Shown: positions 35,706 through 60,920, numbered from the stretch's first letter. The stretch is DNA of 64,000 bases from Candidatus Omnitrophota bacterium (GCA_022711395.1 JAKLFA010000005.1:132302-196301); one strand, 5' to 3'. Program-made: numbers and translations. Notes: a model not told the origin generated them from the sequence alone.

Positions 35706-35760
35706 ATAACTTGTTTGATTTTAATACGTTATGATTCTAAATCAATCCAAAGGGTGAGGA

Positions 35761-35788: not shown

Positions 35789-35794
35789 AACGGC

Positions 35795-35821: not shown

Positions 35822-35851
35822 AAGATATAAAGGCATCTTCAAGAGGAGAGC

Positions 35852-36592: not shown

Positions 36593-37224
36593 GGACGCCG
36601 ATGAGCAAGAAAGAACACGCTAAAGAACACGAAGCATGCCCTTGCGGTGAGGACGCTGCGCCGGTTGCGCCGGGCCAAGCGGAAGGCGAGGACATGATCA
36701 GCATTAAAAGTTCCGAGGTCCTCGCCCTTCAGGAGCAGGCAAAGGACTACAAGGATAAATATCTGAGAGTGCTGGCAGAATTCGAGAACGCTCGCCGGAG
36801 GCAGGAACGAGACAAGGCGGAATTTGTCAAATACGCCAATGAGGGGCTGATCGTTGAGTTCTTGAGCGTCCTGGATGATCTTGAGCGTTCTGTGACGACG
36901 GCCAGGGAAAAACATCAGGACTATGAGTCGTTCATTCACGGGGTCGAGATCGTGATGAAAAGGGTCTATGACCTTTTGAAAAAACAAGGCGTTGAACCGA
37001 TCGAATCCCTGGGAAAGATGTTCGATCCGCACAGTCACGAGATCCTGATGCAGAGCCCCAGCCCGGAACACGAGCATGGAACAGTGATCCAGGAGTTGCA
37101 GAAGGGTTATCGTATCGGAGACAGGGTCCTTCGGACCTCCAAGGTCGCTGTCGCGATGAATGCGTCATCCGGCGCAGCGGAAGAGCGGTCCGAAGACGTT
37201 AAAGAAGAGCAAACCGAAAAATAA
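36589..37224 (+). CDS. grpE: nucleotide exchange factor GrpE
   Basis: KDKYLRVLAEFENARRR motif. Confidence 0.95.
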   Translation: MRTPMSKKEHAKEHEACPCGEDAAPVAPGQAEGEDMISIKSSEVLALQEQAKDYKDKYLRVLAEFENARRRQERDKAEFVKYANEGLIVEFLSVLDDLERSVTTAREKHQDYESFIHGVEIVMKRVYDLLKKQGVEPIESLGKMFDPHSHEILMQSPSPEHEHGTVIQELQKGYRIGDRVLRTSKVAVAMNASSGAAEERSEDVKEEQTEK

Positions 37225-37266
37225 ATATGATCTGGTAAAAGATACAGGTTATGAAGGAGGACGATC

Positions 37267-39177
37267 ATGGCAAAAGCAATTGGTATCGATCTGGGAACAT
37301 CAAATTCCGCCGCCGCGGTCATGGAAGGCGGACGGGCGGTCATTTTACCGTCGGCTGAGGGAGCTGGTGTCGCTTCAGGCAAGGCTTTCCCTTCATTTGT
37401 GGCGTTCACAAAGGACGGGCAGCGCTTGGTCGGCGAGCCGGCCCGCCGGCAGGCACCGATCAACTCTGAAGGAACGATCTACGCGGCCAAGCGGAAGATG
37501 GGGAAAGATTATAAATTCAAAGTCTTTGATAAAGAGTTTACCCCGCAACAGGTGAGCGCGTTTATCCTTCAAAAGATCAAAGCGGACGCTGAAAAATATT
37601 TGGGTGAGACTGTTGATGAAGCGGTCATAACGGTCCCCGCGTATTTTAATGATAATCAACGCCAGGCGACGCGTGATGCCGGAGAGATCGCAGGGTTAAA
37701 GGTCCTGCGCATCATCAATGAGCCCACGGCGGCGTGTCTGGCTTATGGTCTGGACAAGGCGGGCAAGGACCAGAAGATCATGGTCTTCGATCTTGGCGGC
37801 GGAACACTGGATGTCACGATTATGGAGATGGGATGGGATGATGAGCATAAAGCGGCGACGTTCGAGGTCCTTTCGACCAGCGGCGACAATGAGCTTGGCG
37901 GGACAGATATGGATAACGTGCTGATCGCCCATATTTGCGAAGAATTCAAAAAGACAAGCGGTATTGACCTTAAGAACGATAAAATGGCCTTTCAGCGCCT
38001 GCGCGAAGCGGCGGAAAAGGCCAAGGTCGAGCTCTCAAGCACGATCTCAACGGAGGTGAATTTGCCTTTTATCACCGCGGATGCCAGCGGTCCCAAACAT
38101 TTGACCATGACCATTGAGCGGTCCAAATTGGAGTCTTTGATCAATCCGATCATTGAACGCTGCCGTCAGCCGATCATTCGTGCTTTGAAGGACGCTTCGG
38201 ATAAGATCGGCGGCCAGGTCAAGGTCGACCGTGTCATCATGGTCGGGGGCCCTACGCGCATGCCGTGCGTTCAGGCCTTTGTGGAGCGGGAAGTCGGCCA
38301 GACCATCGAGCGTGGGATCGACCCGATGGAATGCGTGGCTTTGGGTGCCGCGATCCAGGCTGGGATCGTCAGAGGCGAAGCTAAAGAAGTGCTGCTTCTG
38401 GATGTCACGCCGTTGTCTTTGGGGATCGAGACCATGGGAGGGATTTTTACAAAGCTTATTGACCGCAACACGACGATACCGACCAAGAAGAGCCAGGTCT
38501 TTTCAACCGCTGAAGATAATCAGCCTGCAGTCACGATCCGCGTTCTTCAAGGTGAACGTCAGATGGCCAATGACAACACGGAGCTCGGCCGTTTTGACCT
38601 GGTGGGGATACCGCCGGCGCCGAGAGGGATCCCTCAGATTGAGGTCACGTTCGATATTGATACGGATGGGATCGTCCATGTTTCAGCCAAGGATAAGGGG
38701 ACCGGTAAAGAGCAAAGCATCAAGATCACGGCCCCTCATAAACTTTCGGATGACGAGATCAATAAAATGGTCAAAGACGCCGAGCAGTATGCCGATCAGG
38801 ACAAAAAGCGCAAAGAAGAGGCCGAACTTTTGAATCAGGCCAATACCGTTGTTTACGCGACGGAAAAATCTTTAAAGGATTATGGAGACAAGGTTTCCGC
38901 TTCCGATAAAGAGAATATTGAAAAAGAGCTTAAGGCCTTAAAAGAAGCCGTTGGAAAAAAAGACGCTTCTGCCATCAAAGCGGGGATGGAATCCCTTCAA
39001 AAGGCCAGTCATAAGCTGGCGGAAGAGGTTTATAAAGCGACGGCCGCGCAGCAGGCGGCTCAGGGCCAGGGCGCTAACCCCCAGCCTGAAAGCGGCGCAA
39101 GTGGCAACGCGGAGAAAAAATCCGACAAGGCGGACGGTAAAGATGACGTCATCGATGCGGATTTCAAATCTGAATAA
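37267..39177 (+). CDS. dnaK: molecular chaperone DnaK (Hsp70)
   Basis: 636 aa; [18 protein letters not shown] motifs. Confidence 0.98.
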
Positions 39178-39185
39178 GACACCAG

Positions 39186-39232
39186 GACACTAAGGCACTA
39201 TCACACCAAGCGGTTTTTAGTGCCTTAGTGTC
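39186..39232. repeat. palindromic intergenic element, copy A (GACACTAAGGCACT ... AGTGCCTTAGTGTC)
   Basis: perfect 14-bp inverted repeat with a 19-nt T-rich loop, directly after the dnaK stop. A related copy lies at 60921-61010. Confidence 0.7.
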
Positions 39233-39264
39233 ATAATGTTCCCAGTGCCTTTGAGAAAGCGAAC

Positions 39265-40410
39265 ATGAAAAAAGACTACTACGAAATTCTGGGTATTAAC
39301 CGCGACGCCGGCGTTCAGGATATCAAGAAGAAATATCGGTCCCTGGCGTTGAAATATCACCCTGATCGTGTGCCTCAAGATCAGAAAAAGGAGGCCGAGG
39401 AAAAGTTTAAGGAGATTTCTGAGGCCTATGGTGTTCTCTCTGATCCTGAAAAGAGAAAGTTATACGATCAGTATGGTCATGCGGGTATTGACCGGAATTT
39501 TACCTCTGATGATATTTTTCGAGGTGCTGATTTCAGCGGGTTTGGGGATCTGGGAGATATTTTCAGCCAGTTCTTCGGCGGCGGCGGGGGTTTTGATATT
39601 TTTGGCGGCGGATTTGGTGGAAACGCCCGGCAGGCGGGTCCGCGCCGGGGGCGCGATATTCAGTATGAAATGGAAGTAACTTTAGAAGAAGCGTTTTCGG
39701 GTGTAACTAAAAAGATCACGGTCCCGCGCTATGAGCACTGCGTGGATTGTAACGGATCTGGGGCCAAGAGCAAAGACCATGTCAAGACCTGCTCCGCGTG
39801 CGGCGGTTCGGGACAGGTCGTGATGGCGAGCGGATTTTTCCGCATGGCGCAGACCTGTTCATCATGCGGAGGCCAGGGCCGTGTTGTGACAGAGCATTGC
39901 CCCAAATGCTCCGGCCGCGGTATGGTGAAGGTGACCCGTCATATTGAGGTCAATGTTCCTGCCGGGGTCGACAGTGATAGCCGTTTGCGTGTTAAGGGCG
40001 AAGGTGAAGTTGGCGCGGGAGGGGCCGGGGATCTTTATTTATACATTCTTGTAAAGAAACACCCGGTCTTTCACAGGGTGAACGCGGATATTGAAATGGA
40101 CCTGGGGGTGAGTTATATCGTGGCGGCTTTGGGGGGAGAGGTTTCGGTGGCGACTTTAAGCGGCGAGGTCAAGATGAAGATCCCCGCCGGCACGCAAAGC
40201 GGAAAAGTTTTCCGGTTAAAAGGAAAAGGGATGTCGGTCTTACGCGGGAACGCTTTGGGCGATCAGTATGTGCGGGTCATGATCGAGGTGCCGAAGCGTT
40301 TGTCGGCAGCGGAACGCGAGCGCCTTGAGGAGCTTGCCAGGATCACGGAAACCCCTGTGGACCAGGAAAAAGAATCCCCGTTGGATAAGGTGAAAAAGAT
40401 CTTTAAATAA
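39265..40410 (+). CDS. dnaJ: molecular chaperone DnaJ
   Basis: J-domain HPD, G/F-rich linker, four CxxCxGxG zinc-finger repeats. Confidence 0.97.
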   Translation: MKKDYYEILGINRDAGVQDIKKKYRSLALKYHPDRVPQDQKKEAEEKFKEISEAYGVLSDPEKRKLYDQYGHAGIDRNFTSDDIFRGADFSGFGDLGDIFSQFFGGGGGFDIFGGGFGGNARQAGPRRGRDIQYEMEVTLEEAFSGVTKKITVPRYEHCVDCNGSGAKSKDHVKTCSACGGSGQVVMASGFFRMAQTCSSCGGQGRVVTEHCPKCSGRGMVKVTRHIEVNVPAGVDSDSRLRVKGEGEVGAGGAGDLYLYILVKKHPVFHRVNADIEMDLGVSYIVAALGGEVSVATLSGEVKMKIPAGTQSGKVFRLKGKGMSVLRGNALGDQYVRVMIEVPKRLSAAERERLEELARITETPVDQEKESPLDKVKKIFK

Positions 40411-40423: not shown

Positions 40424-40687
40424 ATGCCGACCTATCAATATGAATGCAGCGGATGCGGCCATGCTTTTGAGAAGATGCAGTCTATCACAGAGGCGAAATT
40501 AACGGTTTGCCCTTCTTGCAAGAAAAGCACGTTGCACCGTTTGATCGGGACCGGTTCGGGCCTGATCTTTAAAGGAAGCGGGTTTTATCAGACAGATTAC
40601 AAAAACAAACCCTGTTCACCCAACACCTGCCCAGTTCAAAAAGATTCTGGCGGATGCTGCGCGGATTCTGGCAATTGCCAGCATTAA
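40424..40687 (+). CDS. FmdB-family zinc-ribbon protein
   Basis: MPTYQYECSGCGH...CPSC plus a Cys-rich C-terminus. Confidence 0.75.
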   Translation: MPTYQYECSGCGHAFEKMQSITEAKLTVCPSCKKSTLHRLIGTGSGLIFKGSGFYQTDYKNKPCSPNTCPVQKDSGGCCADSGNCQH

Positions 40688-43175: not shown

Positions 43176-44282
43176 ATGGCACAGATCAGCCTGAAAAATG
43201 TGAGCAAGCTTTATAAGGGCGGCACGGTCCGCGCGGTCGATGACGTTTCTTTGGGGATCGAGAATAAAGAATTTCTGGTCCTGGTCGGGCCTTCCGGCTG
43301 CGGCAAATCCACGACCTTGCGCATGATCGCCGGCCTCGAAGAGGTTTCTCAGGGTGACATTTGCATCGGTGACCGTCGGGTCAACGATGTTCCGGCCCGA
43401 GACCGCAATATTGCCATGGTCTTTCAGAATTACGCTTTGTATCCCCACATGACCGTTTTTGAGAATATGGCCTTTGGCCTCAAGCTTCGTAAATATCCCA
43501 AAAGTGAGATCGAAAGAAGGGTCGTGGAGGCTTCGGAGATCCTTGGCATCAAGAGATATCTGAACCGTAAGCCGAAGCAACTTTCCGGCGGGGAGCGTCA
43601 GCGGGTGGCCCTGGGGCGGGCGATCGTCCGAAAGCCGCAGGCGTTCCTTTTTGATGAGCCGTTAAGTAATCTGGATGCCAAGATGCGTGTCCAGATGCGC
43701 AGCGAGATCCATAAGCTGCGCATCCGTCTGCAGACAACGTTCGTTTACGTTACCCATGACCAGACGGAAGCGATGACATTGGGCGACCGCATCGCGGTCA
43801 TGCGGGACGGACGGCTTCAACAGTGCGCGGACCCGATCAGCCTGTATGAGAAACCGGTCAATAAGTTCGTGGCGAGTTTCATCGGCTTACCGCCTATCAA
43901 TCTCATGAGCGGCCGGATCATCAAGAAAGACCGCAAAATGTATTTTGACGAAGGCCGTTTTAAAGTCGAGCTTGTTCAGACGATGTATTCCAAGATCGCG
44001 CCGTATGAGGGCAAAGAGATCATCTTTGGTATCCGGGCTGAGGACATTTATGATAAATTATTCACTTCCGAGGCGTCTCCTGAAAATACGGTCAAGGCGA
44101 CCTGTGAAGTTGTTGAACCGATGGGTTCAGAGGTATACTTATATTTGAATTCTGGAAAAAACACTTTCATTGCCCGTGTCGGAGCGCATAATCGTCCGGA
44201 AGTGAATCGGGATATGGACCTGGTGTTCGACATGAACAAGGTGCATTTCTTTGATAAAGACACAGATGCGACAATTATTTAG
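43176..44282 (+). CDS. sugar ABC transporter ATP-binding protein (MalK/MsmX/UgpC family)
   Basis: Walker A GPSGCGKST, signature LSGGERQRVALGRA, Walker B FLFDEPLSNLD, C-terminal TOBE domain; no permease or SBP genes adjacent. Confidence 0.9.
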   Translation: MAQISLKNVSKLYKGGTVRAVDDVSLGIENKEFLVLVGPSGCGKSTTLRMIAGLEEVSQGDICIGDRRVNDVPARDRNIAMVFQNYALYPHMTVFENMAFGLKLRKYPKSEIERRVVEASEILGIKRYLNRKPKQLSGGERQRVALGRAIVRKPQAFLFDEPLSNLDAKMRVQMRSEIHKLRIRLQTTFVYVTHDQTEAMTLGDRIAVMRDGRLQQCADPISLYEKPVNKFVASFIGLPPINLMSGRIIKKDRKMYFDEGRFKVELVQTMYSKIAPYEGKEIIFGIRAEDIYDKLFTSEASPENTVKATCEVVEPMGSEVYLYLNSGKNTFIARVGAHNRPEVNRDMDLVFDMNKVHFFDKDTDATII

Positions 44283-45546
44283 TTCCCGCCTGGCTTTGGG
44301 GCTTATCTTCAGCCTTCCTTTAGCTGGTTTTTGCCTTTATGTCGTTTTTTTGCAACCCCGTTTTCTCTTATCGTTTAGCGCGTCCCTTGTTTTTTTGCTG
44401 GGTATTTTTGTTTATCAGCACTTCCGGCTCGTTTGGTTGCGGGCCGAAGCTGAGCTGAAAAGACAGGATTTCCAGGAAAAAGCCAATTTGCTTGAAGCTC
44501 AGATCGAGCGCCAGTGGGTGGCGCTTAAATCCGCGCGCAAGAAACTGGTGGATTATTTTGAACTGAAGACGATCGCCGAGAAGCTGAACCAGAGTTTTTC
44601 GCTTTCGGATACATCCAGCGTGCTTTCTACCGAGGTTAGCAAACTGTTCGGGCATAAGGACCTGACGGTGATCCTCTATATTTTTCACTCCAAAACGGGA
44701 GAGCTGGGGATTTCGGCTTCCCATAAAGGGCAGATGGAGGTCAATATCAAGGCCAAAAAAGGCGATGTGTATGATCAATGGGTGGCCAAGAATCTGCAGC
44801 CGCTGCTGATCGAGGACACCGCGCGGGATTTCCGTTTTGACGCGGAAAAGATCAAGGTCGAGGATGACAGAACGATCTCTTCCTTGATGAGCGTTCCGAT
44901 GATGATCGGCGGTAAAGCGATCGGGATCCTTCGCATTGACAGCCCGGTGGAGAATTATTTTCAGACCGAACATATTCGGCTTTTATCGACGATCGGGGAC
45001 CTTGGCGCGGTCGCCATTGAGAACGCCCAGCTTTATGAAAAGATCGAAGAGCTTTCGATCCGGGACAGTTTGACGGAGCTGTATTTGAGAAGGCATTTTT
45101 TGCAGCGTTTAACTTATGAAATCAACCGGGAGATCCGTCAAAAAAAGGAACTGTCGTTCGTTCTGGTCGATCTGGATTATTTTAAAAAATACAATGACCA
45201 GTTCGGCCACATGGCCGGTGACATCGTGCTGAAGACGATTAGCATGCTTTTGGTGGAGGTTTTTAACATCCCCGGCAGCCTGGTGTGCCGTTATGGTGGC
45301 GAGGAGTTCGCCGTGTTCTTGCCGGATTGTTCCAAAGAACGGGCGGCGCAGTTAAGTGAAGAGTTCAGGGAGCGGGTCGCGGAGCAGGCGTTTTATCTCA
45401 AAAGGCAGGAGACCCGAATGACCGTTTCGGTGGGGGTCGCCTCACTTCCGCAGGACGGGATCTTGCGCGAACAGCTGATCGAAAAGGCGGACCGGGCGTT
45501 GTATAAGGCCAAACAGAGCGGCCGGAACCGCGTTTGCGTTTCGTAA
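44251..45546 (+). CDS. GAF-GGDEF diguanylate cyclase (membrane-anchored)
   Basis: two N-terminal TMs, coiled coil, GAF-like region, GGDEF domain with RYGGEEF active site and a possible I-site. Confidence 0.85.
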   Translation: MIKTQMRQLFSSRLALGLIFSLPLAGFCLYVVFLQPRFLLSFSASLVFLLGIFVYQHFRLVWLRAEAELKRQDFQEKANLLEAQIERQWVALKSARKKLVDYFELKTIAEKLNQSFSLSDTSSVLSTEVSKLFGHKDLTVILYIFHSKTGELGISASHKGQMEVNIKAKKGDVYDQWVAKNLQPLLIEDTARDFRFDAEKIKVEDDRTISSLMSVPMMIGGKAIGILRIDSPVENYFQTEHIRLLSTIGDLGAVAIENAQLYEKIEELSIRDSLTELYLRRHFLQRLTYEINREIRQKKELSFVLVDLDYFKKYNDQFGHMAGDIVLKTISMLLVEVFNIPGSLVCRYGGEEFAVFLPDCSKERAAQLSEEFRERVAEQAFYLKRQETRMTVSVGVASLPQDGILREQLIEKADRALYKAKQSGRNRVCVS

Positions 45547-45563
45547 GACAGGAGAAGTGTTTT

Positions 45564-46580
45564 ATGGTCGTGGCAGGTTTTCTACTTTTTCTTTATTGTG
45601 CGGTCACGGCGGGGGCGATGGCTTATTACATCGTGCTGAAGCAGGAGGACTGCGAGCTGGAGATCCTGAAGGCTAAAGAACGCTTTCAAAAATACATTTT
45701 GCAGGAAGACAGCATTCTGCAGGAACGTCAGGAGCTGGAGGACAAGGTCAGCCGGGTCTACACGCTTTACGACATCACAAAAGAGATCACCAAGACATAT
45801 GATAATGACGAGGCGTTTCAGATCTTTCAGCAGCGCCTGCGGGACCACGCGCAGTATGAATATTGCCTTTTGTTAAGTCCTCTTTCATCTGAGGTGAGCG
45901 CCTTAAAAAAAGACCCGGAACATCTTGTTTTTCCGGCCAAAGGTAAAAAGGAGCTGCTTGGGTATTTGGCGATCAAGGGCGGGCGAGAGGAAGATAAGGA
46001 CATCATTGAGATCTTGACCAATCAATTCGCGCTGGGTTTGCGGCGGATCCATTTGTATAAAGAAGTCGAACGGCTGGCGATCACGGATAGTTTGACCCAG
46101 GTTTTTACAAGGCGGTATCTGATGGAGCGCTTTACGGAAGAAATGAACCGGGCCAAAGCCAAGAACGTTAATTTGGCGTTTTTGATGCTGGACATAGACC
46201 ATTTCAAGAACATTAACGACCAATACGGGCATTTGGCCGGTGACCATGTTTTGAGAGAGGTGGCGAAGGTCATTAAAGAGGCCGTGCGCGAGATCGATAT
46301 TGTGGGGCGATACGGCGGGGAAGAGTTCTCTGTGATCCTTCCGGACACCAACCGTGAAGGGGCGCATTATGTGGCGGAACGCGTGCGTTCTGTGGTTGAG
46401 GCGCGGACGATCCGCGCGTATGACAAAAATATCCATGTGACGGTCAGCATTGGATCGACCGCTTTTCCGCATGACGGCAGAAAGATCTCTGAATTGATCG
46501 ACAAGTCTGACTGGGCGCTCTACCGCGCTAAAAAACTCGGGCGGAACCGTGTCTGCGCGTTCGGCGTCTATGAGGAATGA
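45564..46580 (+). CDS. GGDEF diguanylate cyclase (membrane-anchored)
   Basis: N-terminal TM, coiled coil, GGDEF with RYGGEEF. Start at MVVAGF has RBS AGGAGA; the ORF extends to 45534. Confidence 0.85.
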   Translation: MVVAGFLLFLYCAVTAGAMAYYIVLKQEDCELEILKAKERFQKYILQEDSILQERQELEDKVSRVYTLYDITKEITKTYDNDEAFQIFQQRLRDHAQYEYCLLLSPLSSEVSALKKDPEHLVFPAKGKKELLGYLAIKGGREEDKDIIEILTNQFALGLRRIHLYKEVERLAITDSLTQVFTRRYLMERFTEEMNRAKAKNVNLAFLMLDIDHFKNINDQYGHLAGDHVLREVAKVIKEAVREIDIVGRYGGEEFSVILPDTNREGAHYVAERVRSVVEARTIRAYDKNIHVTVSIGSTAFPHDGRKISELIDKSDWALYRAKKLGRNRVCAFGVYEE

Positions 46581-46614
46581 AATGATCAGAAGGAACTGTA
46601 ATGGAGGAACGATA

Positions 46615-48162
46615 ATGAACCGTAAAGCGCAGCATGTCATTGAATATTTGCTCCTTATAGCCAGCGTCATGGTTGTTTTTTTGGTCATTGCCGGACCGAT
46701 GGGATTTATCCGCAGAGGGGTTGATGACTCGATCAACCGGACGATGAACCTGATCAAGCCGGAAGATCCCGCGCGGGAGCTGACGGAATATTACTGGTCT
46801 TCTGCGAACTGTGATTGTTCCGGGTCGCGGCAATGCGTTTATCCGGGAGGGGATGAGATCTTTGTGATCTGCCGTTTCCGATGTGTCAGTAAAGATACGG
46901 GGGGAGTGGTTGATGACTGGTTCTGTTTGAATTTGCTGGGCTATAAACCTGCTCAGCGTTCCAGCTGTGGGAACCAGCCCTGTTGCGGTAACGGAGCGTT
47001 TGAGCCGTCCTATGGAGAACAATGCGACGCCAGCGCGGGTTTTACGGAGACGTGTGAAAGCCGTTTCGGGTCACAGCCCCATGGCTGGAGCGGTAGCGTG
47101 CGTTGCACGGATGATTGCAAGATTGCAGATGATTGCGGCGCGAACCCGCCTCCGAGGCCGGATGTATGCGGTGATAATAAATTGACGGGATCCGAGGATT
47201 GTGATGTCGTGAACGGGAACGCTGTTTTCAGGACAGGACTGTCCGCGGGATGCACGGACTATGTTTCAGCGGATGGCCAACCGTTTGAGGGAGGGGTCTT
47301 GGGATGTAATACGAGCGGCCAAACATGCACGATTGATAAGGGGAATTGTTATATCTGCGCTCCTGGAGATGAAGCGCGGTGCGGGAGCGGGCTGGAATCA
47401 AGGCCGGACCCACAATCTTCGGAAGATTGTTTCAGGAACGGGACCGAGTTTGTCAGCCGTCTCTGCACGCGGGAAAATGGCACGACGTTTTCTCAGGCCG
47501 AATGCCGTTCTAATGAGCAATGCGGAACGGGGTGCGCGATCATCGAGGATTACGCGACGCCTTGCCCGAATTCGACCACCCCAGCGAGCGGGGCCACACG
47601 GCCCTGGAGGTATGTTGATACGGTCCAAGGCTGTGATATGAATAACAATAATCCATTGATGAGCAAGACGTGCCTGGCTTGGTGCAATGGGGATCTGGAG
47701 AGCTATACCTATGGCGCTAACCGGACCGCGTGCCGGTGCCCTAAAACGGGGTTTGTGTTCGACCCTGTCGATCAAACATGCAAGTGTCCTTCGCCGCCTT
47801 TTGTGCTGGATGCCGATGGGAACTGTTTGCTCCCGGGCACATGGCTGAATGTGGATAATTCATCCAAAGATTGCGCCAGCACATGCGCGACCGCGAGCAT
47901 GTCTTCCGGACCGTCTCCGGAAGGGATGGTTTGCGCCTCCGGTGAGAACCGTCCCCAAACGGGACAAGGCGTCATCAGTTATGTTCACGGGATTTGGGGA
48001 GGGGATCGTTGTTTGCATGAGATCACGGAAGGGCCGATCGATATGACCCTTGTGCACGTTGAGTCCAAAGACCGGTATGAGTGTTACAGGCCGGGCCAAA
48101 AGAGAGATCATGACGCCACAGATATTCTGGTGGCGTGTTATTGTATCGTGGCTGAAAATTGA
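46615..48162 (+). CDS. large secreted Cys-rich protein with Flp/TadE-type (class III signal) pilin-like N-terminus, paralog 1
   Basis: start MNRKAQHVIEYLLLIASVMVVFLVIAG with RBS GGAGGA. About 50 Cys residues. N-terminal 300 aa ~60-70 % identical to the next gene. Confidence 0.7.
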   Translation: MNRKAQHVIEYLLLIASVMVVFLVIAGPMGFIRRGVDDSINRTMNLIKPEDPARELTEYYWSSANCDCSGSRQCVYPGGDEIFVICRFRCVSKDTGGVVDDWFCLNLLGYKPAQRSSCGNQPCCGNGAFEPSYGEQCDASAGFTETCESRFGSQPHGWSGSVRCTDDCKIADDCGANPPPRPDVCGDNKLTGSEDCDVVNGNAVFRTGLSAGCTDYVSADGQPFEGGVLGCNTSGQTCTIDKGNCYICAPGDEARCGSGLESRPDPQSSEDCFRNGTEFVSRLCTRENGTTFSQAECRSNEQCGTGCAIIEDYATPCPNSTTPASGATRPWRYVDTVQGCDMNNNNPLMSKTCLAWCNGDLESYTYGANRTACRCPKTGFVFDPVDQTCKCPSPPFVLDADGNCLLPGTWLNVDNSSKDCASTCATASMSSGPSPEGMVCASGENRPQTGQGVISYVHGIWGGDRCLHEITEGPIDMTLVHVESKDRYECYRPGQKRDHDATDILVACYCIVAEN

Positions 48163-48203
48163 AGCCGGGAAAACGCCGGAGCCCATAAAGGAAAGAGAGA
48201 TCA

Positions 48204-50135
48204 ATGAATCGAAAGGCGCAGCAGATCATTGAATATTTGCTTTTGATCGCCAGTGTCCTGCTTGTTTTTCTTGCTGTTTCGGGACCGAACGGCTTCATTC
48301 GGGTGAGGATGGAGGATTCCATTAACCGGACCCTGAATTTGATCAAGAAGGATGACCCGGCGGGTTCTGCTCCGTATTTCTGGTCTGCGGCCAATTGTGA
48401 TTGTTCCGGCCAGCGATCTTGTGTTTATCCGGGCGGTGATGAGGTTGTTGTGACATGTTCTTATGCATGCATTAATAACCTTACCCACGCTCCGGTCAAT
48501 GACTGGCTCTGCTTAGATTCTTTAGGATACAAACCTTCAAGCGAGATGGGATGCGGGGATGATCCCTGTTGCGGGAACGGGGCCTTCGATCTTGCCTACG
48601 GGGAGTTCTGTGACGCCAGCGCGGGTTTTACGGAGACATGTGAAAGCCGTTTCGGGTCACGTTTATACGGCTGGAGCGGAAGCGTGCGCTGCACGAATGA
48701 TTGCAAGATCACGGATGATTGCGTCGAGAATCCTCCTCCGCCGCCTGATGTCTGCGGGGACAATAAGCTGACCGGCAGTGAGGTTTGCGATGAGGTGGCC
48801 GGTGTGGATATTTTCGCGCCGGGAGTTCCTGGAAACTGCACGGACTACATGGTAAGCGGCCATTTTTTTGAAGGAGGCATCTTGGGTTGTGACACAAGCG
48901 CGGACCCTTGCAAGGTGGACACGGGCGACTGTTATCGCTGCGGAGCATGGGGAACCGGGACGTGCGGGACCAGGACGGGTGCTTCGAGGGCCAATCCCAC
49001 ATCACCGGCCCATTGTTCGAAGGACGGCACGGAATTCCTCAGCCGCAATTGTACACGGGGCGATGGAACAACTTTCCTGCAGGGGCAGTGCCGGACCAAC
49101 CCCGCCTGCGGCAATCAATGCGGCATTAGGGAAGATTATTCGACCCTTTGTCCCGGGTCATCAACCTATAGTTACGATCATGACTGGCAATACGTCGATG
49201 ATTTGGCGAATTGCACAGCGGAAGACTGTGTCGCTTATTGTAACGGCGATCTGGTCGTCAGAAGCGGGGGCTGCCACTGCCCTAAGAACAATTTTGTGTT
49301 CAATAGCGAAACGGAAAAATGTTTCTGCCCAAGCCCGTTTGTCATCGTCACCGGCAATTGTCAGCTTTGCGGTAACAGAACATGCGAATCAGCGCCTCCC
49401 GCTAACGAGACTTGCGAGAATTGTCCTGTGGATTGCGGCGAGTGTGACACTCCCGATGATTACGGGGCCTGGCAGAGAATTTCGACGGATGTGTATGGTT
49501 CTTGGAGCCCCATCTCCGGAGGCCGTGAAGTTACGGGAAGCTGTATCGCTAATTACCGCATCCCAAGGGATACGTGTTCGATTGTTGCCAGCGGCGATCA
49601 GTTGCGTGAATTTACTTGCGGGCGGGATGATTGCATCAATTTTTGGGGCTATATCACGCAATTTACCCCGCAGTGTGACGATTCAAGGACCTGCACGGAT
49701 GTCGTTGTCTGGGATACAACGAGGTTACAGGCTAAGTACCGGACCCGCAGCGTGGAATGTAACAATCCGGACATTTATAACCCGGACCGCTACGGGTCAT
49801 GGTCGAGCTGGACGACGATCAATGGTTCATGTTACGACATTCCTTATCGGGACCGGGAGACCTGTGATTATGCTTTTGAGGATTATCCTTACGAATGTGA
49901 ATCTTTCGAAAACAATAAAGATTGTAATGACGTGGAGTGCCAAAATCTTGGCAACGTTCAATATTGCACCTATAAAGAACGAGAGGTCAAATGCTTCAAC
50001 GGCGGGGAAGACACCTGCGATAATAACTCGTTGGCTTCTTATACTTGTCCGGACGGAGTGGCCAAGCCCGCCTGCCGCGATGTGAACCTTTATCAGGGGA
50101 TAGGAGGTTCTTACCGCACGGTGACGTGCAACTAA
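48204..50135 (+). CDS. large secreted Cys-rich protein with Flp/TadE-type pilin-like N-terminus, paralog 2
   Basis: start MNRKAQQIIEYLLLIASVLLVFLAVSG with RBS AAAGGAAAGAGAG. 643 aa and very Cys-rich. Shares the CDCSG, CCGNGAF and GFTETCESRFGS modules with paralog 1. Confidence 0.7.
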   Translation: MNRKAQQIIEYLLLIASVLLVFLAVSGPNGFIRVRMEDSINRTLNLIKKDDPAGSAPYFWSAANCDCSGQRSCVYPGGDEVVVTCSYACINNLTHAPVNDWLCLDSLGYKPSSEMGCGDDPCCGNGAFDLAYGEFCDASAGFTETCESRFGSRLYGWSGSVRCTNDCKITDDCVENPPPPPDVCGDNKLTGSEVCDEVAGVDIFAPGVPGNCTDYMVSGHFFEGGILGCDTSADPCKVDTGDCYRCGAWGTGTCGTRTGASRANPTSPAHCSKDGTEFLSRNCTRGDGTTFLQGQCRTNPACGNQCGIREDYSTLCPGSSTYSYDHDWQYVDDLANCTAEDCVAYCNGDLVVRSGGCHCPKNNFVFNSETEKCFCPSPFVIVTGNCQLCGNRTCESAPPANETCENCPVDCGECDTPDDYGAWQRISTDVYGSWSPISGGREVTGSCIANYRIPRDTCSIVASGDQLREFTCGRDDCINFWGYITQFTPQCDDSRTCTDVVVWDTTRLQAKYRTRSVECNNPDIYNPDRYGSWSSWTTINGSCYDIPYRDRETCDYAFEDYPYECESFENNKDCNDVECQNLGNVQYCTYKEREVKCFNGGEDTCDNNSLASYTCPDGVAKPACRDVNLYQGIGGSYRTVTCN

Positions 50136-50262
50136 GAAGGGATTGGTCCCGTTCTTGTATCGCAGAATTTCCCGTTTTTTCTGTCAAAAGACGTCTTGCA
50201 AGCGCCCCCTTTTTCCGCTAGAATAAATCCGCTTCTTTAATATCAATATAAATATTATAACT

Positions 50263-53335: not shown

Positions 53336-54673
53336 ATGAATATCGCAGTCATCGGCGCGGGATATGTCGGGCTGGTCACCGGTGTGTGTCTGGCGGAGAT
53401 CGGCCATAAAGTCATCTGTATAGACAATGATGAGAAAAAGATCAAGGCCCTTAAGCAGGGGGCGTGCCCGATCTATGAGCCGGGCCTCGAGCAGATGATG
53501 GCCGGCCTGTGCAAAAAGAAGCGGTTGAGCTTTACGACGTCGATCCGGGAGGCGACCCAAAGATCGGAAGTGATCTTCATCGCGGTCGGGACGCCTTCGA
53601 AAAAGAACGGCGATGCTGACCTGACCTATGTGGAGAACGTGGCCCGACAGATCGCTGAGAATATGGACAGCTATAAACTGATCGTGGAGAAATCCACTGT
53701 GCCGGCCGAGACCGGCCAGCGAGTCAAGCGCACGATCATGCTGAACCTTCCGCAGAAATACCGCAAAGGAAAGAACGCTGTGGCATTCGACGTGGCGTCA
53801 AACCCCGAATTCTTGCGGGAAGGGTCCGCCATTGAGGATTTCATGAACCCGGACCGTGTGGTCATCGGCGTGGAATCAAAAAAAGCGGAAGAGCTTCTGC
53901 GTGAGGTGTATAAGCCTTTAAAACCGAAGATGGTCGTGACTAATATCAATTCAGCGGAGATCATCAAGCATGCTTCCAATTCTTTTTTGGCGACCAAGAT
54001 CTCCTTCGCGAACGCGCTTTCGCAGATCTGCGACCGGGTGGGGGCGGACGTGCTGAAAGTCGCGGAGGGTATGGGGTATGATAAAAGGATCGGCCGCTCA
54101 TTTTTGAACGCCGGCGTCGGTTACGGCGGAAGCTGTTTTCCGAAGGATGTCGATGCTTTTATCCGTCTGAGCCAACGCAGCGGTTATGAGTTCGAGCTTT
54201 TGAAAGAGGTTCGCAATATCAATGAGCTTCAGAAGAGAGCGTTCGTTCAATTCATTGAAGACAAGCTCTGGATCCTGAAAGGAAAGACGATCGGCGTCCT
54301 GGGGCTGGCCTTTAAGCCGGACACGGATGATATGCGCAAGGCCCCATCGATCGATATCATCCAGATGTTTTTGGCGGAAGGGGCCAGGGTCCGGGCATAT
54401 GACCCTCAGGCAACGGAGAACGCGAAAAAGGTCATGAAGAAAGCAGCGTATTTCAAGGATGCTTATACGATGGCCAAAGGTTGTGATTGTTTGGTCCTTT
54501 TGACGGAGTGGGAGGAATTCAGCCGCCTTGATTTCAGGCGTTTGGCGAAACTGATGAAACAGCCCATTCTTTTCGACGGAAGGAATTTTTACTGGCAGCA
54601 CGGCCTGGAGAAGTTCGGGTTTGAATATCACGGGATCGGTCGCGGCCAGGGCGGCTTAAAAGGTTCTGTTTAA
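53336..54673 (+). CDS. ugd: UDP-glucose 6-dehydrogenase
   Basis: 445 aa; NAD motif IGAGYVGL, catalytic Cys in GGSCFPKD. Confidence 0.9.
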   Translation: MNIAVIGAGYVGLVTGVCLAEIGHKVICIDNDEKKIKALKQGACPIYEPGLEQMMAGLCKKKRLSFTTSIREATQRSEVIFIAVGTPSKKNGDADLTYVENVARQIAENMDSYKLIVEKSTVPAETGQRVKRTIMLNLPQKYRKGKNAVAFDVASNPEFLREGSAIEDFMNPDRVVIGVESKKAEELLREVYKPLKPKMVVTNINSAEIIKHASNSFLATKISFANALSQICDRVGADVLKVAEGMGYDKRIGRSFLNAGVGYGGSCFPKDVDAFIRLSQRSGYEFELLKEVRNINELQKRAFVQFIEDKLWILKGKTIGVLGLAFKPDTDDMRKAPSIDIIQMFLAEGARVRAYDPQATENAKKVMKKAAYFKDAYTMAKGCDCLVLLTEWEEFSRLDFRRLAKLMKQPILFDGRNFYWQHGLEKFGFEYHGIGRGQGGLKGSV

Positions 54674-54692
54674 CGAGAAAGAGAGTCCGCGG

Positions 54693-55997
54693 ATGAGCGC
54701 GCAGCTTTTAAAGAAAATAAAAACGAAAAAGGCGGTTGTTTCTGTCCTGGGGTTGGGATATGTCGGGCTTCCCTTGGCGGTGAATTTCGCCAAGGCGGGG
54801 TTTACGGTCTGCGGGTTTGACACGGATGAGGACCGGGTGAACAGGGTGTCGACCCGGAAAAGCTATATCGCTGATATTCCGCAGAAGGACCTTGCGGGCG
54901 TTGTGCGCAGCGGGCATCTTTCGGCCACAACGGATTTCAGCAGATTGTCGGAAACGGACGTTGTGATCATCTGCGTGCCGACGCCTCTTAAGAGCAAATA
55001 CACACCGGACGTGTCTTATATTATCGGGGCGGTGCGGATCCTGAGAAAGTATTTGAAACGCGGGGTTCTGGTCGTTCTTGAGAGCACGACCTATCCGGGG
55101 ACGACCAGGGAAATGATCCAGCCGGAACTGGAGAAGTCGGGCCTCAAAGCGGGGAAGGATTTCTTTTTGGCGTTCTCTCCGGAGCGCATCGACCCGGGCA
55201 ACAAGGTCTATGACGTGACCCGCATCCCGAAAGTTGTGGGAGGCTTGGACGCCCAAAGCGCGAAACTTACCAAAGAGCTTTATTCCAAGATCATCAAAAC
55301 GATCCATCCGGTCTCTTCACCCGAGGCGGCGGAGATGACGAAGCTTTTGGAAAATTCGTTTCGGATCATCAATATCGGCTGGATCAATGAAGTGGCGATG
55401 ATGTGCGAAAAAATGGGCATTGATATCTGGGAGGTCATTGAGGCGGCCAAGACCAAGCCGTTCGGGTTCATGCCGTTCTATCCCGGCCTTGGGGTGGGCG
55501 GCCACTGCATTCCGGATGATCCATTGTATTTATATTGGAAGGCAAAGCGGTATGGGTTTGATTCGAAATATATCAAGCTCTCGGCGGACACCAACGCTCA
55601 GATGCCTGCCTATGTGATCCGTCGCATCGCCCAGGCCTTGCAGGAACGGAAAAAAACGTTGAAAAAGGCCAAGATCCTGGTCGTGGGAGTCACCTACAAA
55701 AAAGACGTGAGGGATTTGCGCAAATCACCGTCTTTGAACCTGATCCGGCTGCTGCAGGAACAGGTTTCTAAAGTTGATTATTTCGACCCGTTGATCCCAT
55801 ATCTTGAGATCTTCAATATCCATCAGAAAGTATCCGTGGTGCCGACACCGGAATCGCTGCGCCGTTATGATTGCGTGGTGATCGCCACGGACCATTCGCA
55901 GATCGATTATCAAAAACTGCTCAAACACGCGCGCCTGGTCTTTGATACGCGCAATGTCTATAAGTCTGTCCGAAGCGCGAAAGTGATTCGGTTATAA
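54693..55997 (+). CDS. UDP-N-acetyl-D-hexosamine 6-dehydrogenase (WbpA/TviB/WecC-like nucleotide-sugar dehydrogenase)
   Basis: 434 aa; LGLGYVGLP NAD motif, catalytic Cys GVGGHCIPDD. Confidence 0.85.
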   Translation: MSAQLLKKIKTKKAVVSVLGLGYVGLPLAVNFAKAGFTVCGFDTDEDRVNRVSTRKSYIADIPQKDLAGVVRSGHLSATTDFSRLSETDVVIICVPTPLKSKYTPDVSYIIGAVRILRKYLKRGVLVVLESTTYPGTTREMIQPELEKSGLKAGKDFFLAFSPERIDPGNKVYDVTRIPKVVGGLDAQSAKLTKELYSKIIKTIHPVSSPEAAEMTKLLENSFRIINIGWINEVAMMCEKMGIDIWEVIEAAKTKPFGFMPFYPGLGVGGHCIPDDPLYLYWKAKRYGFDSKYIKLSADTNAQMPAYVIRRIAQALQERKKTLKKAKILVVGVTYKKDVRDLRKSPSLNLIRLLQEQVSKVDYFDPLIPYLEIFNIHQKVSVVPTPESLRRYDCVVIATDHSQIDYQKLLKHARLVFDTRNVYKSVRSAKVIRL

Positions 55998-56009
55998 GGA
56001 GAGAAGTCC

Positions 56010-56963
56010 ATGGGGCGCAAAAAAAATGTGGTGATCACGGGAGGGGCGGGATTTTTAGGGAGCCATTTATGCGATCTGCTGTTGTCGGATGGCTATAAGG
56101 TCTTCTGTGTCGACAACCTGATCACCGGAAGCATGAAGAACATCGAGCATTTGAAGCGTGAACGATGTTTTGAATTCATTAAGCATGATATCTCCAAACC
56201 GATCACGATTTCAGGGCCGCTTGATTTCATCCTTCATTTTGCCTCTCCGGCGAGCCCGATCGATTATCTGATGTATCCGATCCAGACCTTGAAAGTGGGT
56301 TCTTTGGGGACGCACAATAGCCTGGGTCTTGCCAAGTGCAAGAAAGCGCGCTTTCTTCTGGCCTCGACGTCTGAAGTCTATGGGGACCCTCTGGAGCACC
56401 CTCAGAAGGAAACCTATTGGGGGCATGTGAACCCCATAGGCCCTCGGGGAGTCTATGATGAGGCAAAACGTTTCGCGGAAGCGATCACGCTGGCCTATCA
56501 CCGGTATCACAAGGTTGACGTCCGCATTGTCCGGATCTTCAACACCTACGGGCCGCGGATGCGCATTCACGACGGGAGAGTCGTTCCAAATTTTATTTAT
56601 CAGGCCCTGCGCGGCCAGCCGCTGACGGTTTACGGGGCGGGCCGGCAGACGCGATCATTCTGCCATTATTATGATCTGATCGAAGGGATCTACAGGCTGC
56701 TCCTTTCGGATCATGTGGGGCCGGTCAATATCGGGAATCCTTCTGAGTTCACGATCCTGCAGTTCGCTAAACTTGTGCTGAAACTTTCCGGCTCCAAGAG
56801 CGTGATCAAATATGAACCGCTGCCGACGGATGACCCAAAACGGCGCAAGCCGGATATTTCGCTTGCCAGGCGCCTGCTCAAATGGGAGCCGGTCGTGCAG
56901 TTGGAAGAAGGTTTGCGTGAGACCATTGCCTGGTTCCAGGAAAAAGGATGCCTTGAGAAATGA
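56010..56963 (+). CDS. UDP-glucuronate (or UDP-GlcNAcA) decarboxylase, UXS/ArnA-C-like SDR
   Basis: 317 aa; [18 protein letters not shown] YxxxK; high similarity to UDP-xylose synthases. Confidence 0.85.
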
Positions 56964-57964
56964 CCAATAAAGACTGTGCTCCCTTTCCCAATCCTGAATT
57001 AACGGCGGCAGCGGCAGCCGATTTCCTAACGAGAATGCTCATGATCCGCCGTGCCGAGCTTAAGATCGAAGAACTTTATCCTCTTGAACAGATGAAGACC
57101 CCGGTGCATTTGAGCCTAGGCCAGGAGGCTGTTTCCGCCGGCGTGTGCATGCATTTAAACCGGGATGATGCGGTCTTCAGCAATCACCGCAGTCACGGCC
57201 ATTACTTGGCCAAGGGCGGAAGCCTTAAGGAACTCATCGCGGAGCTTTATTGCCGTGAGACAGGCTGCTCCAAAGGCCGTGGGGGTTCCATGCATGTGAT
57301 CGCCAAAGATGCCGGTCATTGGGGAAGTTCTTCGATTGTTGCGGGCGCGACGCCCCACGCGGTGGGGGCGGCTTTGGCGTTTCAAATGCAAAAGAAAAAC
57401 GCCGTCGCGGTTTGTTTTTTAGGTGACGGGGCCTGTGAACAGGGGGTTTTTTTTGAGAGCATGAATTGGGCCGCGCTCAAAAAAGTCCCGGTGGTCTTTG
57501 TGATCGAGAATAACTTTTATTCGGTCAGCTCACACATTTCCGTGCGGGAGGTTAATGAATTTTTATACAAGCGCGCCTGGGCGTTCGATATTCCTTCGTT
57601 CAGGGTCGATGGAATGAACCCGCTGGATGTTTACGCTTCAGCGGCGGAAGCCGTTGAGCACGCGCGCTCGGGAAAGGGGCCGTTCGTCGTTGAATACGTT
57701 CTTCAGCGTTGGCGCATGCACGTCGGTCCGGGCGATCCTAACGCCGCGCTGTACCGTGCGCCCGAGGAGCTGCAGGCTGGCTATCAGCGTGACCCGATCA
57801 AAGAATTTGTTGAACATGTTCTTACGGCCGGGATATTGAAGGAGCAGGAGATCGCGCAGATCAGCTCGCGGGTCGATGGTGAGGTCGAAGAGGCATTTGT
57901 CTTCGCGCAGAACAGCCCGCTGCCTGACGGGGGGGATCTCGCGAAGTTTTTATTTGTCGACTAG
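56960..57964 (+). CDS. TPP-dependent dehydrogenase E1 component alpha subunit-like (sugar-modifying two-carbon transferase candidate)
   Basis: 334 aa; TPP-binding motif GDGACEQG...ENN; overlaps previous gene by 4 nt. Confidence 0.85.
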
Positions 57965-57988
57965 ATAACAGAAAGCTGTTTTTCAATT

Positions 57989-59044
57989 ATGCCATGGACC
58001 AAATTACAAGTTGAACGTGAAGAGCCGGCGTTTGATGAGAACGCAGGGGACAATGTCCGCAAACTGGATTTCGGGACTGCCTTGCTTGAAGCGCAGGACC
58101 AGGCGCTCGCGCGCGATCCGCGTGTTTTTGTCATGGGCCAGGGAGTGAATGACCCCAATGGCGCGTTCGGCACGACGAATGCCCTTTACAAGAAGTACGG
58201 CCTTGAACGCGTTTTTGACACGCCGCTCAACGAAGAGTCCACGATCGGCATCGCGCTGGGGGCCGCTATGGCGGGTATGCGTCCGGTGGTGGTCCATAAT
58301 CGTCCGGATTTTCTTTTGATGGCCATGGACCAGATCGTCAACCATGCCGCCAAGTGGAGCTATATGTTTGCCGGACAGGTTCCCTTGCCGGTGGTCATCC
58401 GCTCATGTGTCGGAAGGGGATGGGGGTCTGCGGCTCAGCATTCGCAAACTGTGCACGGGCTTTTTCATCATGTGCCGGGATTAAAGATCGTTCTGCCATC
58501 GACCGCTTATGATGCCAAGGGGCTTTTGATCTCAAGCATCGCTGACAATAATCCGGTTTTATTTTTTGAGCAGCGATGGCTTTATAAACATCAAAGCCAT
58601 GTCCCGGAGTATGTTTACGCGGTCCCGTTCGGCCAGGCCGCCGTGAAGCGGAAAGGAAAAGACGTGACGGTCGTCGCGGTATCGCACATGGTCATTGAAT
58701 CGTTGCGGGCGGCCGATGAGCTTGCTGCAGAGGGGATTGATGTCGAGGTGATCGACCCCCGGACGATCCGTCCGCTGGATATTGAGACGATCCTGGCTTC
58801 GGTCCGTAAGACCGGGCGGCTTGTGGTGGCGGACCTGGCCTGGACAACAGGAGGCTTCGCGGCGGAAGTTGTTGCCGTGGTTACAGAGCGGGCATTTCAT
58901 GGCCTGAAATGCGCTCCCAGGCGCGTGGCGTTTCCGGATCTTCCGACCCCGGCGGGATACACCCTGGAACAGGCGTTCTATCCAGGGGCGAAAGACATCA
59001 AAAAAGCAGTTCTGGAAATGGTTCGACCCAGCGAGAAGGTTTGA
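57989..59044 (+). CDS. TPP-dependent dehydrogenase E1 component beta subunit-like (transketolase-like Pyr and C-terminal domains)
   Basis: 351 aa; similarity to PdhB/AcoB family. Confidence 0.85.
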   Translation: MPWTKLQVEREEPAFDENAGDNVRKLDFGTALLEAQDQALARDPRVFVMGQGVNDPNGAFGTTNALYKKYGLERVFDTPLNEESTIGIALGAAMAGMRPVVVHNRPDFLLMAMDQIVNHAAKWSYMFAGQVPLPVVIRSCVGRGWGSAAQHSQTVHGLFHHVPGLKIVLPSTAYDAKGLLISSIADNNPVLFFEQRWLYKHQSHVPEYVYAVPFGQAAVKRKGKDVTVVAVSHMVIESLRAADELAAEGIDVEVIDPRTIRPLDIETILASVRKTGRLVVADLAWTTGGFAAEVVAVVTERAFHGLKCAPRRVAFPDLPTPAGYTLEQAFYPGAKDIKKAVLEMVRPSEKV

Positions 59045-59047
59045 GAT

Positions 59048-60912: not shown

Positions 60913-60920
60913 AATGACAA

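Follow-up and report, generated by a model that had tools for sequence, protein, structure and literature searches.

Tandem cysteine-rich proteins with a predicted Flp/class III-type pilin-like N-terminus in a Candidatus Omnitrophota bacterium

The Omnitrophota are widespread, uncultured and ultra-small bacteria for which predatory or parasitic lifestyles are suspected, and we know of no adhesin or host-recognition protein from this phylum. A stretch of 64,000 nucleotides from a Candidatus Omnitrophota bacterium (GCA_022711395.1, JAKLFA010000005.1:132302-196301; in this report, the window) carries two adjacent open reading frames, ORF1 and ORF2, whose products start like a prepilin and continue as long cysteine-rich chains. 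Both are proteins of a metagenome-assembled genome (MAG) from anaerobic digesters, encoded on a contig of 209,946 bp. The question raised by this locus is whether the two proteins are pilus subunits that carry foreign domains or envelope proteins of another kind. We lean towards the former, seeing in the pair modular pilins of the Flp/class III type that would act as filament-displayed adhesins.

The original prediction, made from the sequence alone, placed both open reading frames as in Table 1 and read MNRKAQ(H/Q)(V/I)IEYLLLIASV at the start of both proteins; positions and translations agree. In ORF1 the leader MNRKA is followed by a hydrophobic helix with E10 and Y11 (positions +5 and +6), a G-P-x-G break and a second, amphipathic helix. 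The prepilin cut is predicted after Ala5 and before Gln6. A profile built from 70 small proteins alone to prevent circularity (Z = 1.8e9) aligns end to end with residues 1-50 of ORF1 and ORF2, which corresponds to approximately the whole small protein (scores in Table 1). The small-protein and N-terminal-module profiles have no match in the window beyond ORF1 and ORF2.

The consensus of the family is [KR][GA]/Q-x-[IV]-[IV]-E-Y-L-L-L (the slash marks the predicted cut), followed by ~21 hydrophobic residues and then P-x-G. Among the 79 distinct members having the N-terminus, position -1 is Gly in 53 and Ala in 26. Gln at +1 and Glu at +5 are present in 79/79; this invariance is partly due to the anchoring of the alignment, yet no member with the N-terminus is without these residues. 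Conservation extends to Tyr at +6 (78/79), Leu at +8 (77/79), Pro at +23 (55/79) and Gly at +25 (52/79). The information content of the 79 sequences peaks from -1 to +9, unlike that of a Sec signal peptide. Read from the sequence, the pattern is the G/XXXXEY signature of Flp pilins (E+5, Y+6) combined with the +1 Gln of archaeal class III pilins.

The register of the module is that of a solved pilin. In hhalign, IIEY of the family pairs with AIEY of the mature Caulobacter Tad pilin (P = 4e-4), the sequence of which was checked against PDB entry 8u1k. The hidden Markov model (HMM) of the small proteins keeps this register when aligned with the 8u1k pilin from IEY to Gly25; its score is reached by 2 of 5000 composition-preserving shuffles. 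Both AlphaFold2 models show a helix at residues 3-26, a break at G-P-x-G and a helix at residues 31-47 in ORF1 and ORF2, and this helix-break-helix layout is confined to the first 50 residues of the two proteins and to the homologues of 57-78 amino acids (aa).

Pfam has gathering thresholds of 23.7 bits for Class_IIIsignal (PF04021) and 32.2 bits for Flp_Fap (PF04964). PF04021 matches the relative P0010 and seven of nine small homologues, with P0021 alone above the cut-off (24.6 bits); Flp_Fap matches four of the nine, all under threshold (E = 1e-4 to 0.04, 14-22 bits). Precomputed PF04021 matches exist for three further homologues, and some are labelled 'UPF0333' or 'Flp pilin' by JGI. Pfam support for a pilin module appears weak but is in a consistent register. 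TadE (PF07811) gave no match at E <= 10 with the N-terminal fragments or at E <= 1 with the whole proteins. Residues 1-50 are best described as a complete Flp/class III-type pilin-like module that is not TadE/TadF-like. Accordingly, of the Flp/TadE-type N-terminus in the original prediction the conserved prepilin-like module stands, with its 79 members and the 8u1k register, and the TadE/TadF part does not.

No cysteine is present in residues 1-50 of either protein. Past residue 50 the cysteines are evenly spaced and amount to 8.3% of ORF1 and 9.3% of ORF2. The counts of 43 and 60 replace the earlier estimate of ~50 in each, and the term 'giant' in the original prediction is an overstatement for proteins of 515-643 aa. 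An alignment of ten large members contains ~25 invariant cysteines within the first 375 residues, and the cysteine pattern of the ORF2 stalk is invariant throughout the aligned members.

Module A has the layout W...C.CS..C...C...C...P...C with one invariant Trp and seven invariant Cys. PF19030 (TSP1_ADAMTS) is matched by three of eight aligned members (best E = 2.7e-5). P0010 and P0009 are among the relatives matching PF19030 or PF00090, and P0010 has canonical TSP_1 and TSP1_ADAMTS domains later in its chain; ORF1 and ORF2 themselves match neither Pfam family. The best PDB match of the module A profile is a thrombospondin-repeat didomain of THSD7A (8oxr), which is not significant (E = 0.058). 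Foldseek ranked the same entry second, with E = 1.0 and a probability of 0.82, on a low-confidence model. Most likely, module A is a diverged thrombospondin type 1 repeat.

Modules B and C can be placed through intermediates. Positions 119-243 of the family profile match repeat units of P0007, P0008 and P0011 (E = 2e-8 to 4e-6), and P0007 matches TIGR02232 (myxo_disulf_rpt, E = 3.8e-11) and weakly DUF4215 (E = 0.0035). Modules B/C appear to be related to the Myxococcus cysteine-rich repeat, transitively via P0007 (E = 2e-8). Pfam and NCBIfam scans gave no direct TIGR02232 or DUF4215 match for ORF1 or ORF2. Modules of the thrombospondin-like and Myxococcus-like kinds are present also in the non-pilin proteins P0007, P0008, P0011 and P0022. 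The architecture had been called unrecognised: no described family spans the whole proteins, but the body holds a probable diverged TSP1_ADAMTS-type repeat and repeats that appear related to the Myxococcus one.

ORF1 and ORF2 are real tandem paralogues with a common part of ~400 aa (56% identity across 409 aa, E = 4e-147, BLASTP). Both carry CDCSG, CCGNGAF, GFTETCESRFGS and PPPxPDVCGDNKLTGSE, so every shared motif listed in the original prediction is present. The similarity claimed there is real, its extent being ~400 aa instead of the first ~300 aa. Past approximately residue 395 the sequences are unrelated. N-x-S/T sequons number 7 in ORF1 and 9 in ORF2, against a composition-based estimate of roughly 4 and 6. 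They had been described as numerous; the excess is slight, and N-glycosylation was set aside since the counts are close to expectation.

A mechanical call opens ORF1 at GTG 46549, ahead of ATG 46615. ATG 46615 is taken as the start because a GGAGGA lies six bases before it, all homologues begin with MNRKAQ and independent gene callers also give 515 aa.

The C-terminal regions are shared by few relatives. The ORF1-type C-terminus is common to P0002 only, whereas the ORF2-type region is common to P0001, P0003 and a protein of 858 aa with 75 Cys (L018:606-3182), which was found by a metagenome scan on another contig of the window's ENA sample ERZ795055. In that protein the [DE]TC...Y.C...C.DV motif is multiplied several-fold; the motifs also occur in the non-pilin protein P0022. 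Profile positions 520-632 match P0022 and P0012, a database entry that is a miscalled internal fragment of the 858-aa protein. Compared with its 88% relative P0001, ORF2 has 92-93% identity over residues 1-390 and 83% over residues 391-643.

A second tandem pair is present in an Omnitrophota MAG (GCA_046542295.1; L014:10001-13485). In its two genes, for proteins of 528 and 527 aa, the first 927 nt and the 27 nt in front of them agree at 99.6% while the remainder is unrelated, which suggests a recent duplication, gene conversion or 3' cassette exchange. The window pair, with ~70% DNA identity over ~750 nt and repeat families at 73-77%, has the same design at greater age. The constant N-terminal part and divergent C-terminus of the original prediction are confirmed for the window pair and recur in L014; likewise, comparison of homologues shows a conserved MNRKAQ N-terminus and varying C-termini. 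A mechanism that generates diversity or inverts cassettes in the window was considered and rejected: there are no inverted repeats, and the sole direct repeats are the paralogous 5' parts with 73-77% identity.

The family of ORF1 and ORF2 is very small, lineage-specific and annotated as hypothetical only. A word-indexed search of 5.8 billion proteins retrieved three relatives of ORF2. An exhaustive HMMER profile search of 1.84 billion cluster representatives gave 22 proteins at E <= 0.001, seven of which are large relatives (363-674 aa) having both the N-terminus and the cysteine pattern. One of these large relatives comes from a GTDB species representative named Candidatus Omnitrophota and another from an Omnitrophota MAG. 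P0004 is a miscalled C-terminal fragment of ORF1, and the other matches are small proteins (positions 1-50 only) or repeat proteins (single body modules). Six metagenome contigs from anaerobic digesters are 99.97-100% identical to the window. The annotations of L001 and L004-L006 miss ORF1, and a 167-aa C-terminal fragment or small spurious ORFs are called in its place. This is no variation but a gene-calling omission, since the DNA of L001 and L006 is 100% identical to the window. Because ORF1 is missed despite identical DNA, database counts of the family are underestimates.

Nine small proteins of 57-67 aa align solely to positions 1-50 of the large-protein profile in the exhaustive search, the N-terminal-module profile retrieves 69 proteins of 53-91 aa, and the metagenome scan added 19 further loci with small homologues of 57-78 aa. 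The 57-78 aa family occurs on many Omnitrophota contigs. At two loci (L035:4637-5975 and L034:1482-2886) a 78-aa small homologue is directly followed by a large protein with the same pilin-like head. This large protein, annotated as a hypothetical Omnitrophota protein, is truncated at >=318 aa and has a body of CxxCxPCCGDGxC...DC repeats. The pilin-like head is therefore joined to at least two kinds of body.

Besides the homology, signature and register of the N-terminus, the modular-pilin reading of ORF1 and ORF2 is favoured by L034/L035, where the small gene has as its neighbour a pilin-headed large one with another cysteine-rich body, and by the probable modules of the extracellular adhesion type in the body of the two proteins. 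The proteins would belong to the class of modular pilins only if the N-terminal module is truly a pilin. An A24 prepilin peptidase would then remove the five-residue leader MNRKA ahead of Gln6, and the hydrophobic helix with Glu+5/Tyr+6 would insert the protein into a filament of the type IV class, whether Tad-like or not. The small homologue of 57-78 aa would be the main building block of this filament, and the bulky ORF1 or ORF2 protein would most likely sit at its tip. There, a thin disulfide-rich stalk of the cysteine-rich modules may display the variable C-terminal domain towards a surface, possibly that of a host or prey cell. The tandem paralogues would provide alternative binding specificities.

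Several results weigh against a pilin. Whole-protein scans with Pfam and NCBIfam found nothing on ORF1 or ORF2. PF04964 or PF07811 had been expected on residues 1-40; Flp_Fap matches neither the whole proteins nor their N-terminal fragments at E <= 10, and what was found instead is a PF04021 match to the ORF2 N-terminus of 15.6 bits (E = 0.015), under the cut-off. A 60-residue N-terminal fragment of ORF1 has no PF04021 match. Searched against PDB sequences, the N-terminal-module profile gave no pilins and only chance matches to glycosyltransferases. Small residues at -3 and -1 ahead of Gly27 (AVS/G in ORF2, VIA/G in ORF1) are possible signal peptidase I sites. The check by AlphaFold proposed for a disulfide-rich fold came out poorly: two AlphaFold2 runs with 9-sequence alignments have a mean pLDDT (predicted local distance difference test) of 44 and 47. 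Moderately confident parts are the N-terminal helices and residues ~80-110 and 190-300, to the exclusion of the C-terminal domains. Foldseek searches of these models against the PDB gave nothing at E <= 0.001, and the thrombospondin-repeat matches are hints only. Furthermore, no A24 peptidase, TadA/PilB-type ATPase, platform protein or secretin is encoded <=10 kb from any small or large family member in ~20 distinct contexts. No T2SSE Walker motif of a TadA/PilB-type ATPase is present in the scanned loci, and the gene tables of L040 and L041, which were outside this motif scan, contain no gene for such an ATPase. Finally, the small homologue is located in one conserved block (Table 1) in every long context examined, with no pilus families among its neighbours. 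The flavour of this block is glycan handling rather than pilus.

The missing machinery near the family and the glycan flavour of the small homologue's block speak for a non-pilus membrane anchor, which we rate as unlikely. The N-terminal module would then be the membrane anchor of an Omnitrophota-specific small protein belonging to the AlgE-like barrel/ParA-CBM48 block, possibly a glycan-export or envelope system, and ORF1 and ORF2 would be anchored in the inner membrane, exposed to the periplasm or the surface, and linked to that system through this module. The neighbours in the block match Alginate_exp, AAA_31/BcsQ plus AMPK1_CBM/CBM48 and weakly CBM30, which suits such a system, as do the pilin matches in Pfam lying mainly under threshold. 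An anchor does not explain the invariant G/A(-1), Q(+1), E(+5) and Y(+6) and the helix-break-helix in exact Flp/class III register, nor the homologue that exceeds the PF04021 cut-off. Linkage between pilin genes and their machinery is often lacking, for example in Methanococcus maripaludis (PMC3875500). Moreover, an array resembling thrombospondin repeats would be out of place in a diderm if it never left the periplasm, and LptD is encoded two genes downstream of the ORF pair.

The same signature evidence as for modular pilins would also fit a class III-type signal that is processed for export or surface anchoring via a short pseudopilus- or bindosome-like assembly, with no extended adhesive pilus. 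Class III signals are known in archaea from large proteins that are not pilins, the bindosome being one case (PMC3875500), and a bulky globular load is hard to accommodate along a filament. The small homologue, on the other hand, resembles a major Flp pilin in size and layout. Nothing in the present data separates a short assembly from tip display on a long filament; we nevertheless consider the former improbable. Least credible, with a very small probability, is that both are cysteine-rich proteins secreted by Sec or signal-anchored in the ordinary way, with a signal peptidase I cut near residue 26 and a coincidental likeness to Flp. The basic n-region, the single hydrophobic stretch, the small residues before Gly27 and the lack of an above-threshold pilin family match for ORF1 and ORF2 would agree with this. 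However, invariant Q, E and Y and a near-invariant LL over 79 diverged proteins are not seen in signal peptides, which also have no charged Glu where the hydrophobic core begins. The 57-78 aa homologues would shrink to ~30-residue peptides, and the homology runs to residue 50, past any Sec cleavage site.

Extended beyond this locus, the modular-pilin reading leads to a speculative and rather doubtful picture: Omnitrophota filaments might consist of a phylum-wide 57-78 aa Flp/archaeal-hybrid pilin and be capped by a small set of pilin-headed, cysteine-rich adhesins with eukaryote-like thrombospondin repeats, whose distal cassettes, swapped or duplicated as in L014 and in the window pair, would set the recognition of host or prey. 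The block of the small pilin-like protein (AlgE-like barrel, ParA-CBM48 ATPase, membrane proteins) might in turn be part of an apparatus for assembly or anchoring that has yet to be described. It was found in L009, L011 (positions 5719-11062, as an example), L015, L019, L022, L024, L026, L027, L032, L036-L038, L040 and L041.

Table 1. Features of the ORF1/ORF2 locus and gene order of the block containing the small homologue
Feature	Position	Strand	Description
GAF-GGDEF diguanylate cyclase gene	44251..45546	+	Pfam GGDEF E = 7.8e-44, GAF_2 E = 1.4e-9
Second GGDEF diguanylate cyclase gene	45534..46580	+	Pfam GGDEF E = 1.3e-49; gene callers start at ATG 45564 (L002)
Shine-Dalgarno GGAGGA	46603..46608	+	Sequence reading; six bases 5' of ORF1 ATG
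ORF1, candidate modular pilin-like protein	46615..48162	+	515 aa, 43 Cys; NCBI HSA30673.1, annotated hypothetical
ORF1 pilin-like module, residues 1-50	46615..46764	+	Small-protein profile 59.5 bits, E = 2.4e-11
ORF1 module A, residues ~57-124	46783..46986	+	Probable diverged ADAMTS-type thrombospondin type 1 repeat; alignment
ORF1 modules B and C, residues ~118-249	46966..47361	+	Two CG(N/D)x...GE.CD...C cysteine-rich repeats
ORF1 variable C-terminal domain, residues ~396-515	47800..48159	+	Unrelated to ORF2 end
ORF2, candidate modular pilin-like protein	48204..50135	+	643 aa, 60 Cys; NCBI HSA30674.1, annotated hypothetical
ORF2 pilin-like module, residues 1-50	48204..48353	+	Small-protein profile 57.5 bits, E = 9.9e-11
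ORF2 conserved Cys-rich stalk, residues ~55-390	48366..49373	+	TSP1-like module A, two CGNG/CGDN repeats, further Cys modules
ORF2 variable C-terminal region, residues ~391-643	49374..50132	+	WSxW-like and [DE]TC...Y.C...C.DV motifs
Block order			Alginate_exp-like (AlgE-like) outer-membrane barrel; 190-aa transmembrane protein; ParA/BcsQ-like ATPase + CBM48
Block order, continued			DUF4870/MamF-like membrane protein; Lys-rich protein with EF-Tu-D2-like end; small protein
Block end			135-aa 'LIRRYLIWCYKTTKE' protein, then rpsO-pnp-ftsK

The ORF pair is located directly downstream of two GGDEF genes, as the original prediction had stated. Pfam gives the GGDEF domains E-values of 8e-44 and 1e-49. 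The first of these genes overlaps the end of an upstream ABC ATPase gene and is a possible co-transcribed neighbour of the pair. Between the stop of the second (46580) and ORF1 there are 34 nt, and a consensus scan called no terminator-like site between 46580 and 46615. An intrinsic terminator after ORF2 was considered at 50133-50157 and rejected (hairpin z = -0.93, no U-run). In another MAG (GCA_964450385.1), a GAF-GGDEF gene on the minus strand (L017:11163-12428) is convergent with the family member P0005 and follows directly after it; orthology with the GAF-GGDEF gene of the window is unproven (35% identity over the GGDEF domain). A link between cyclic di-GMP (c-di-GMP) and the ORF pair is circumstantial, adjacency here and in one other genome being its basis, and control of ORF1 and ORF2 by c-di-GMP is conceivable at most on these grounds. 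Other large members follow SMC (L007, L017) or thiolase (L014) or lie beside a radical-SAM gene (L018).

The absence of Tad machinery from the window, also noted in the original prediction, is borne out, as no pilus genes were found in the 64 kb. The genes, almost all on one strand, are those of purine synthesis, a heat-shock cluster, accD, the ABC ATPase, the two GGDEF proteins, ROK, LptD and sugar-nucleotide enzymes. Nearly all genes of positions 1-64000 are on the plus strand and the cumulative GC skew climbs steadily across the 64 kb, which would fit a single replichore whose genes are strongly co-oriented with replication. The heat-shock cluster (31378-40410, one strand) encodes a MerR/HspR-like regulator, Hsp20, ClpB, an unknown protein of 228 aa, HrcA, GrpE, DnaK and DnaJ, identified from translations and, for DnaK and DnaJ, by Pfam. 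It is followed at 40424-40687 by an 87-aa FmdB-type zinc-ribbon protein (Zn_ribbon_8) with an extra cysteine-rich tail, CSPNTCPVQKDSGGCCADSGNC. After LptD, positions 53336-64000 hold a sugar-nucleotide/envelope-glycan cluster with two UDP-glucose/GDP-mannose dehydrogenase paralogues, several epimerases/dehydratases and the alpha and beta subunits of an E1-type dehydrogenase. Radical-SAM-like, GHMP-kinase-like and nucleotidyltransferase ORFs, read from translations, are also present in this cluster.

If correct, the assignment of ORF1 and ORF2 as modular pilins would provide concrete, testable candidates for the attachment proteins of possibly parasitic nanobacteria. The modular-pilin principle, described for type IVa-like pilins, would then hold for a minimal Flp/class III scaffold as well, and a bacterial filament subunit would bear thrombospondin-repeat-like modules, which are familiar above all from the matrix proteins of animals and from the adhesins used by apicomplexans for invasion. 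Since the stalk is constant and the distal domain varies between the tandem copies, the pair would give access to specificity and to how it evolves. Should the module not be a pilin, what is left of the finding is a small family of cysteine-rich surface proteins limited to this lineage. Tad and type IVa pilus genes are reported to be frequent in Omnitrophota and tied there to predatory or parasitic lifestyles, and Tad/type IV pili are the main genomic clue to attachment in these bacteria (PMC10066038). According to a 2026 preprint, secretion or pilus genes, with a Tad-pilus assembly cassette at one locus among them, flank giant-protein genes in Omnitrophota.

Parts of ORF1 and ORF2 resemble known modules and systems. 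Module A has the Trp/Cys layout of thrombospondin type 1 repeats (THSD7A, ADAMTS, apicomplexan TRAP-family adhesins). These repeats are extracellular adhesion modules. Unlike the known examples, module A occurs in a bacterial context, is fused to a pilin-like module and has no significant match to solved structures. Modules B/C share the core CG(N/D)G..(D/E).GE.CD with the Myxococcus cysteine-rich acidic repeat (TIGR02232, DUF4215), but are longer (~55-65 aa) and contain additional cysteines.

A pilin-type N-terminus followed by a large C-terminal domain is also found in CofB and TcpB of type IVb systems and in TadE/TadF/TadG. These are low-abundance subunits thought to prime assembly and to sit at the tip. 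Their C-terminal domains are of the beta-repeat/beta-sandwich or vWA type, and they have no sequence relationship to ORF1 or ORF2. CofB is treated in PMC8179133.

Substrates of archaeal EppA have a leader ending in Gly, Q+1 and E+5, and Flp pilins have Y+6 (PMC3875500). Conserved Q+1 and E+5 are shared by ORF1, ORF2 and the archaeal class III pilins (PF04021/DUF361/UPF0333; EpdA-E and MMP0600/0601/0709 of M. maripaludis), and no Pfam family matches ORF2 and many homologues better than PF04021. The archaeal leader ends in Gly, as in 53/79 relatives; in ORF1 and ORF2 it ends in Ala. This archaeal family comprises ~60-aa major-type and larger minor pilins, with genes scattered away from the machinery (PMC3875500). 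The larger members have 130-300 aa and are not cysteine-rich repeat arrays. The host of ORF1 and ORF2 is a bacterial diderm, and their Y+6 is absent from the M. maripaludis pilins. With Flp pilins (PilA of Caulobacter crescentus, 8u1k, PF04964) the two proteins share the short basic leader ending in G/A, E+5, Y+6, ~20 hydrophobic residues, the Gly break near +25 and the short second helix in identical register. Flp pilins have 45-60 aa in the mature form, whereas ORF1 and ORF2 carry an extra 465-590 aa. They also differ in the invariant Gln at +1 of their family and in the absence of tadV/cpaA or tad genes nearby.

A close parallel in overall design is given by the modular pilins PilB (vWA module) and PilC (lectin module) of Streptococcus sanguinis (Raynaud et al. 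2021; PMC8179133; PMC9934059). Flp and Tad are not mentioned in the text of PMC8179133. Modular type IV pilins combine an N-terminal pilin module with one or more bulky domains unspecific to pilus biology and are predicted to be displayed at the tip for direct adhesion, as suggested here for ORF1 and ORF2. The S. sanguinis-type proteins have the class III signal of the N-methylation type (IPR012902) and a globular type IVa-like pilin domain. In ORF1 and ORF2 the corresponding part is a predicted helix hairpin of 45 residues of the Flp/archaeal type with Q+1/E+5/Y+6, and the graft is a cysteine-rich array of putative thrombospondin-like and Myxococcus-type repeats.

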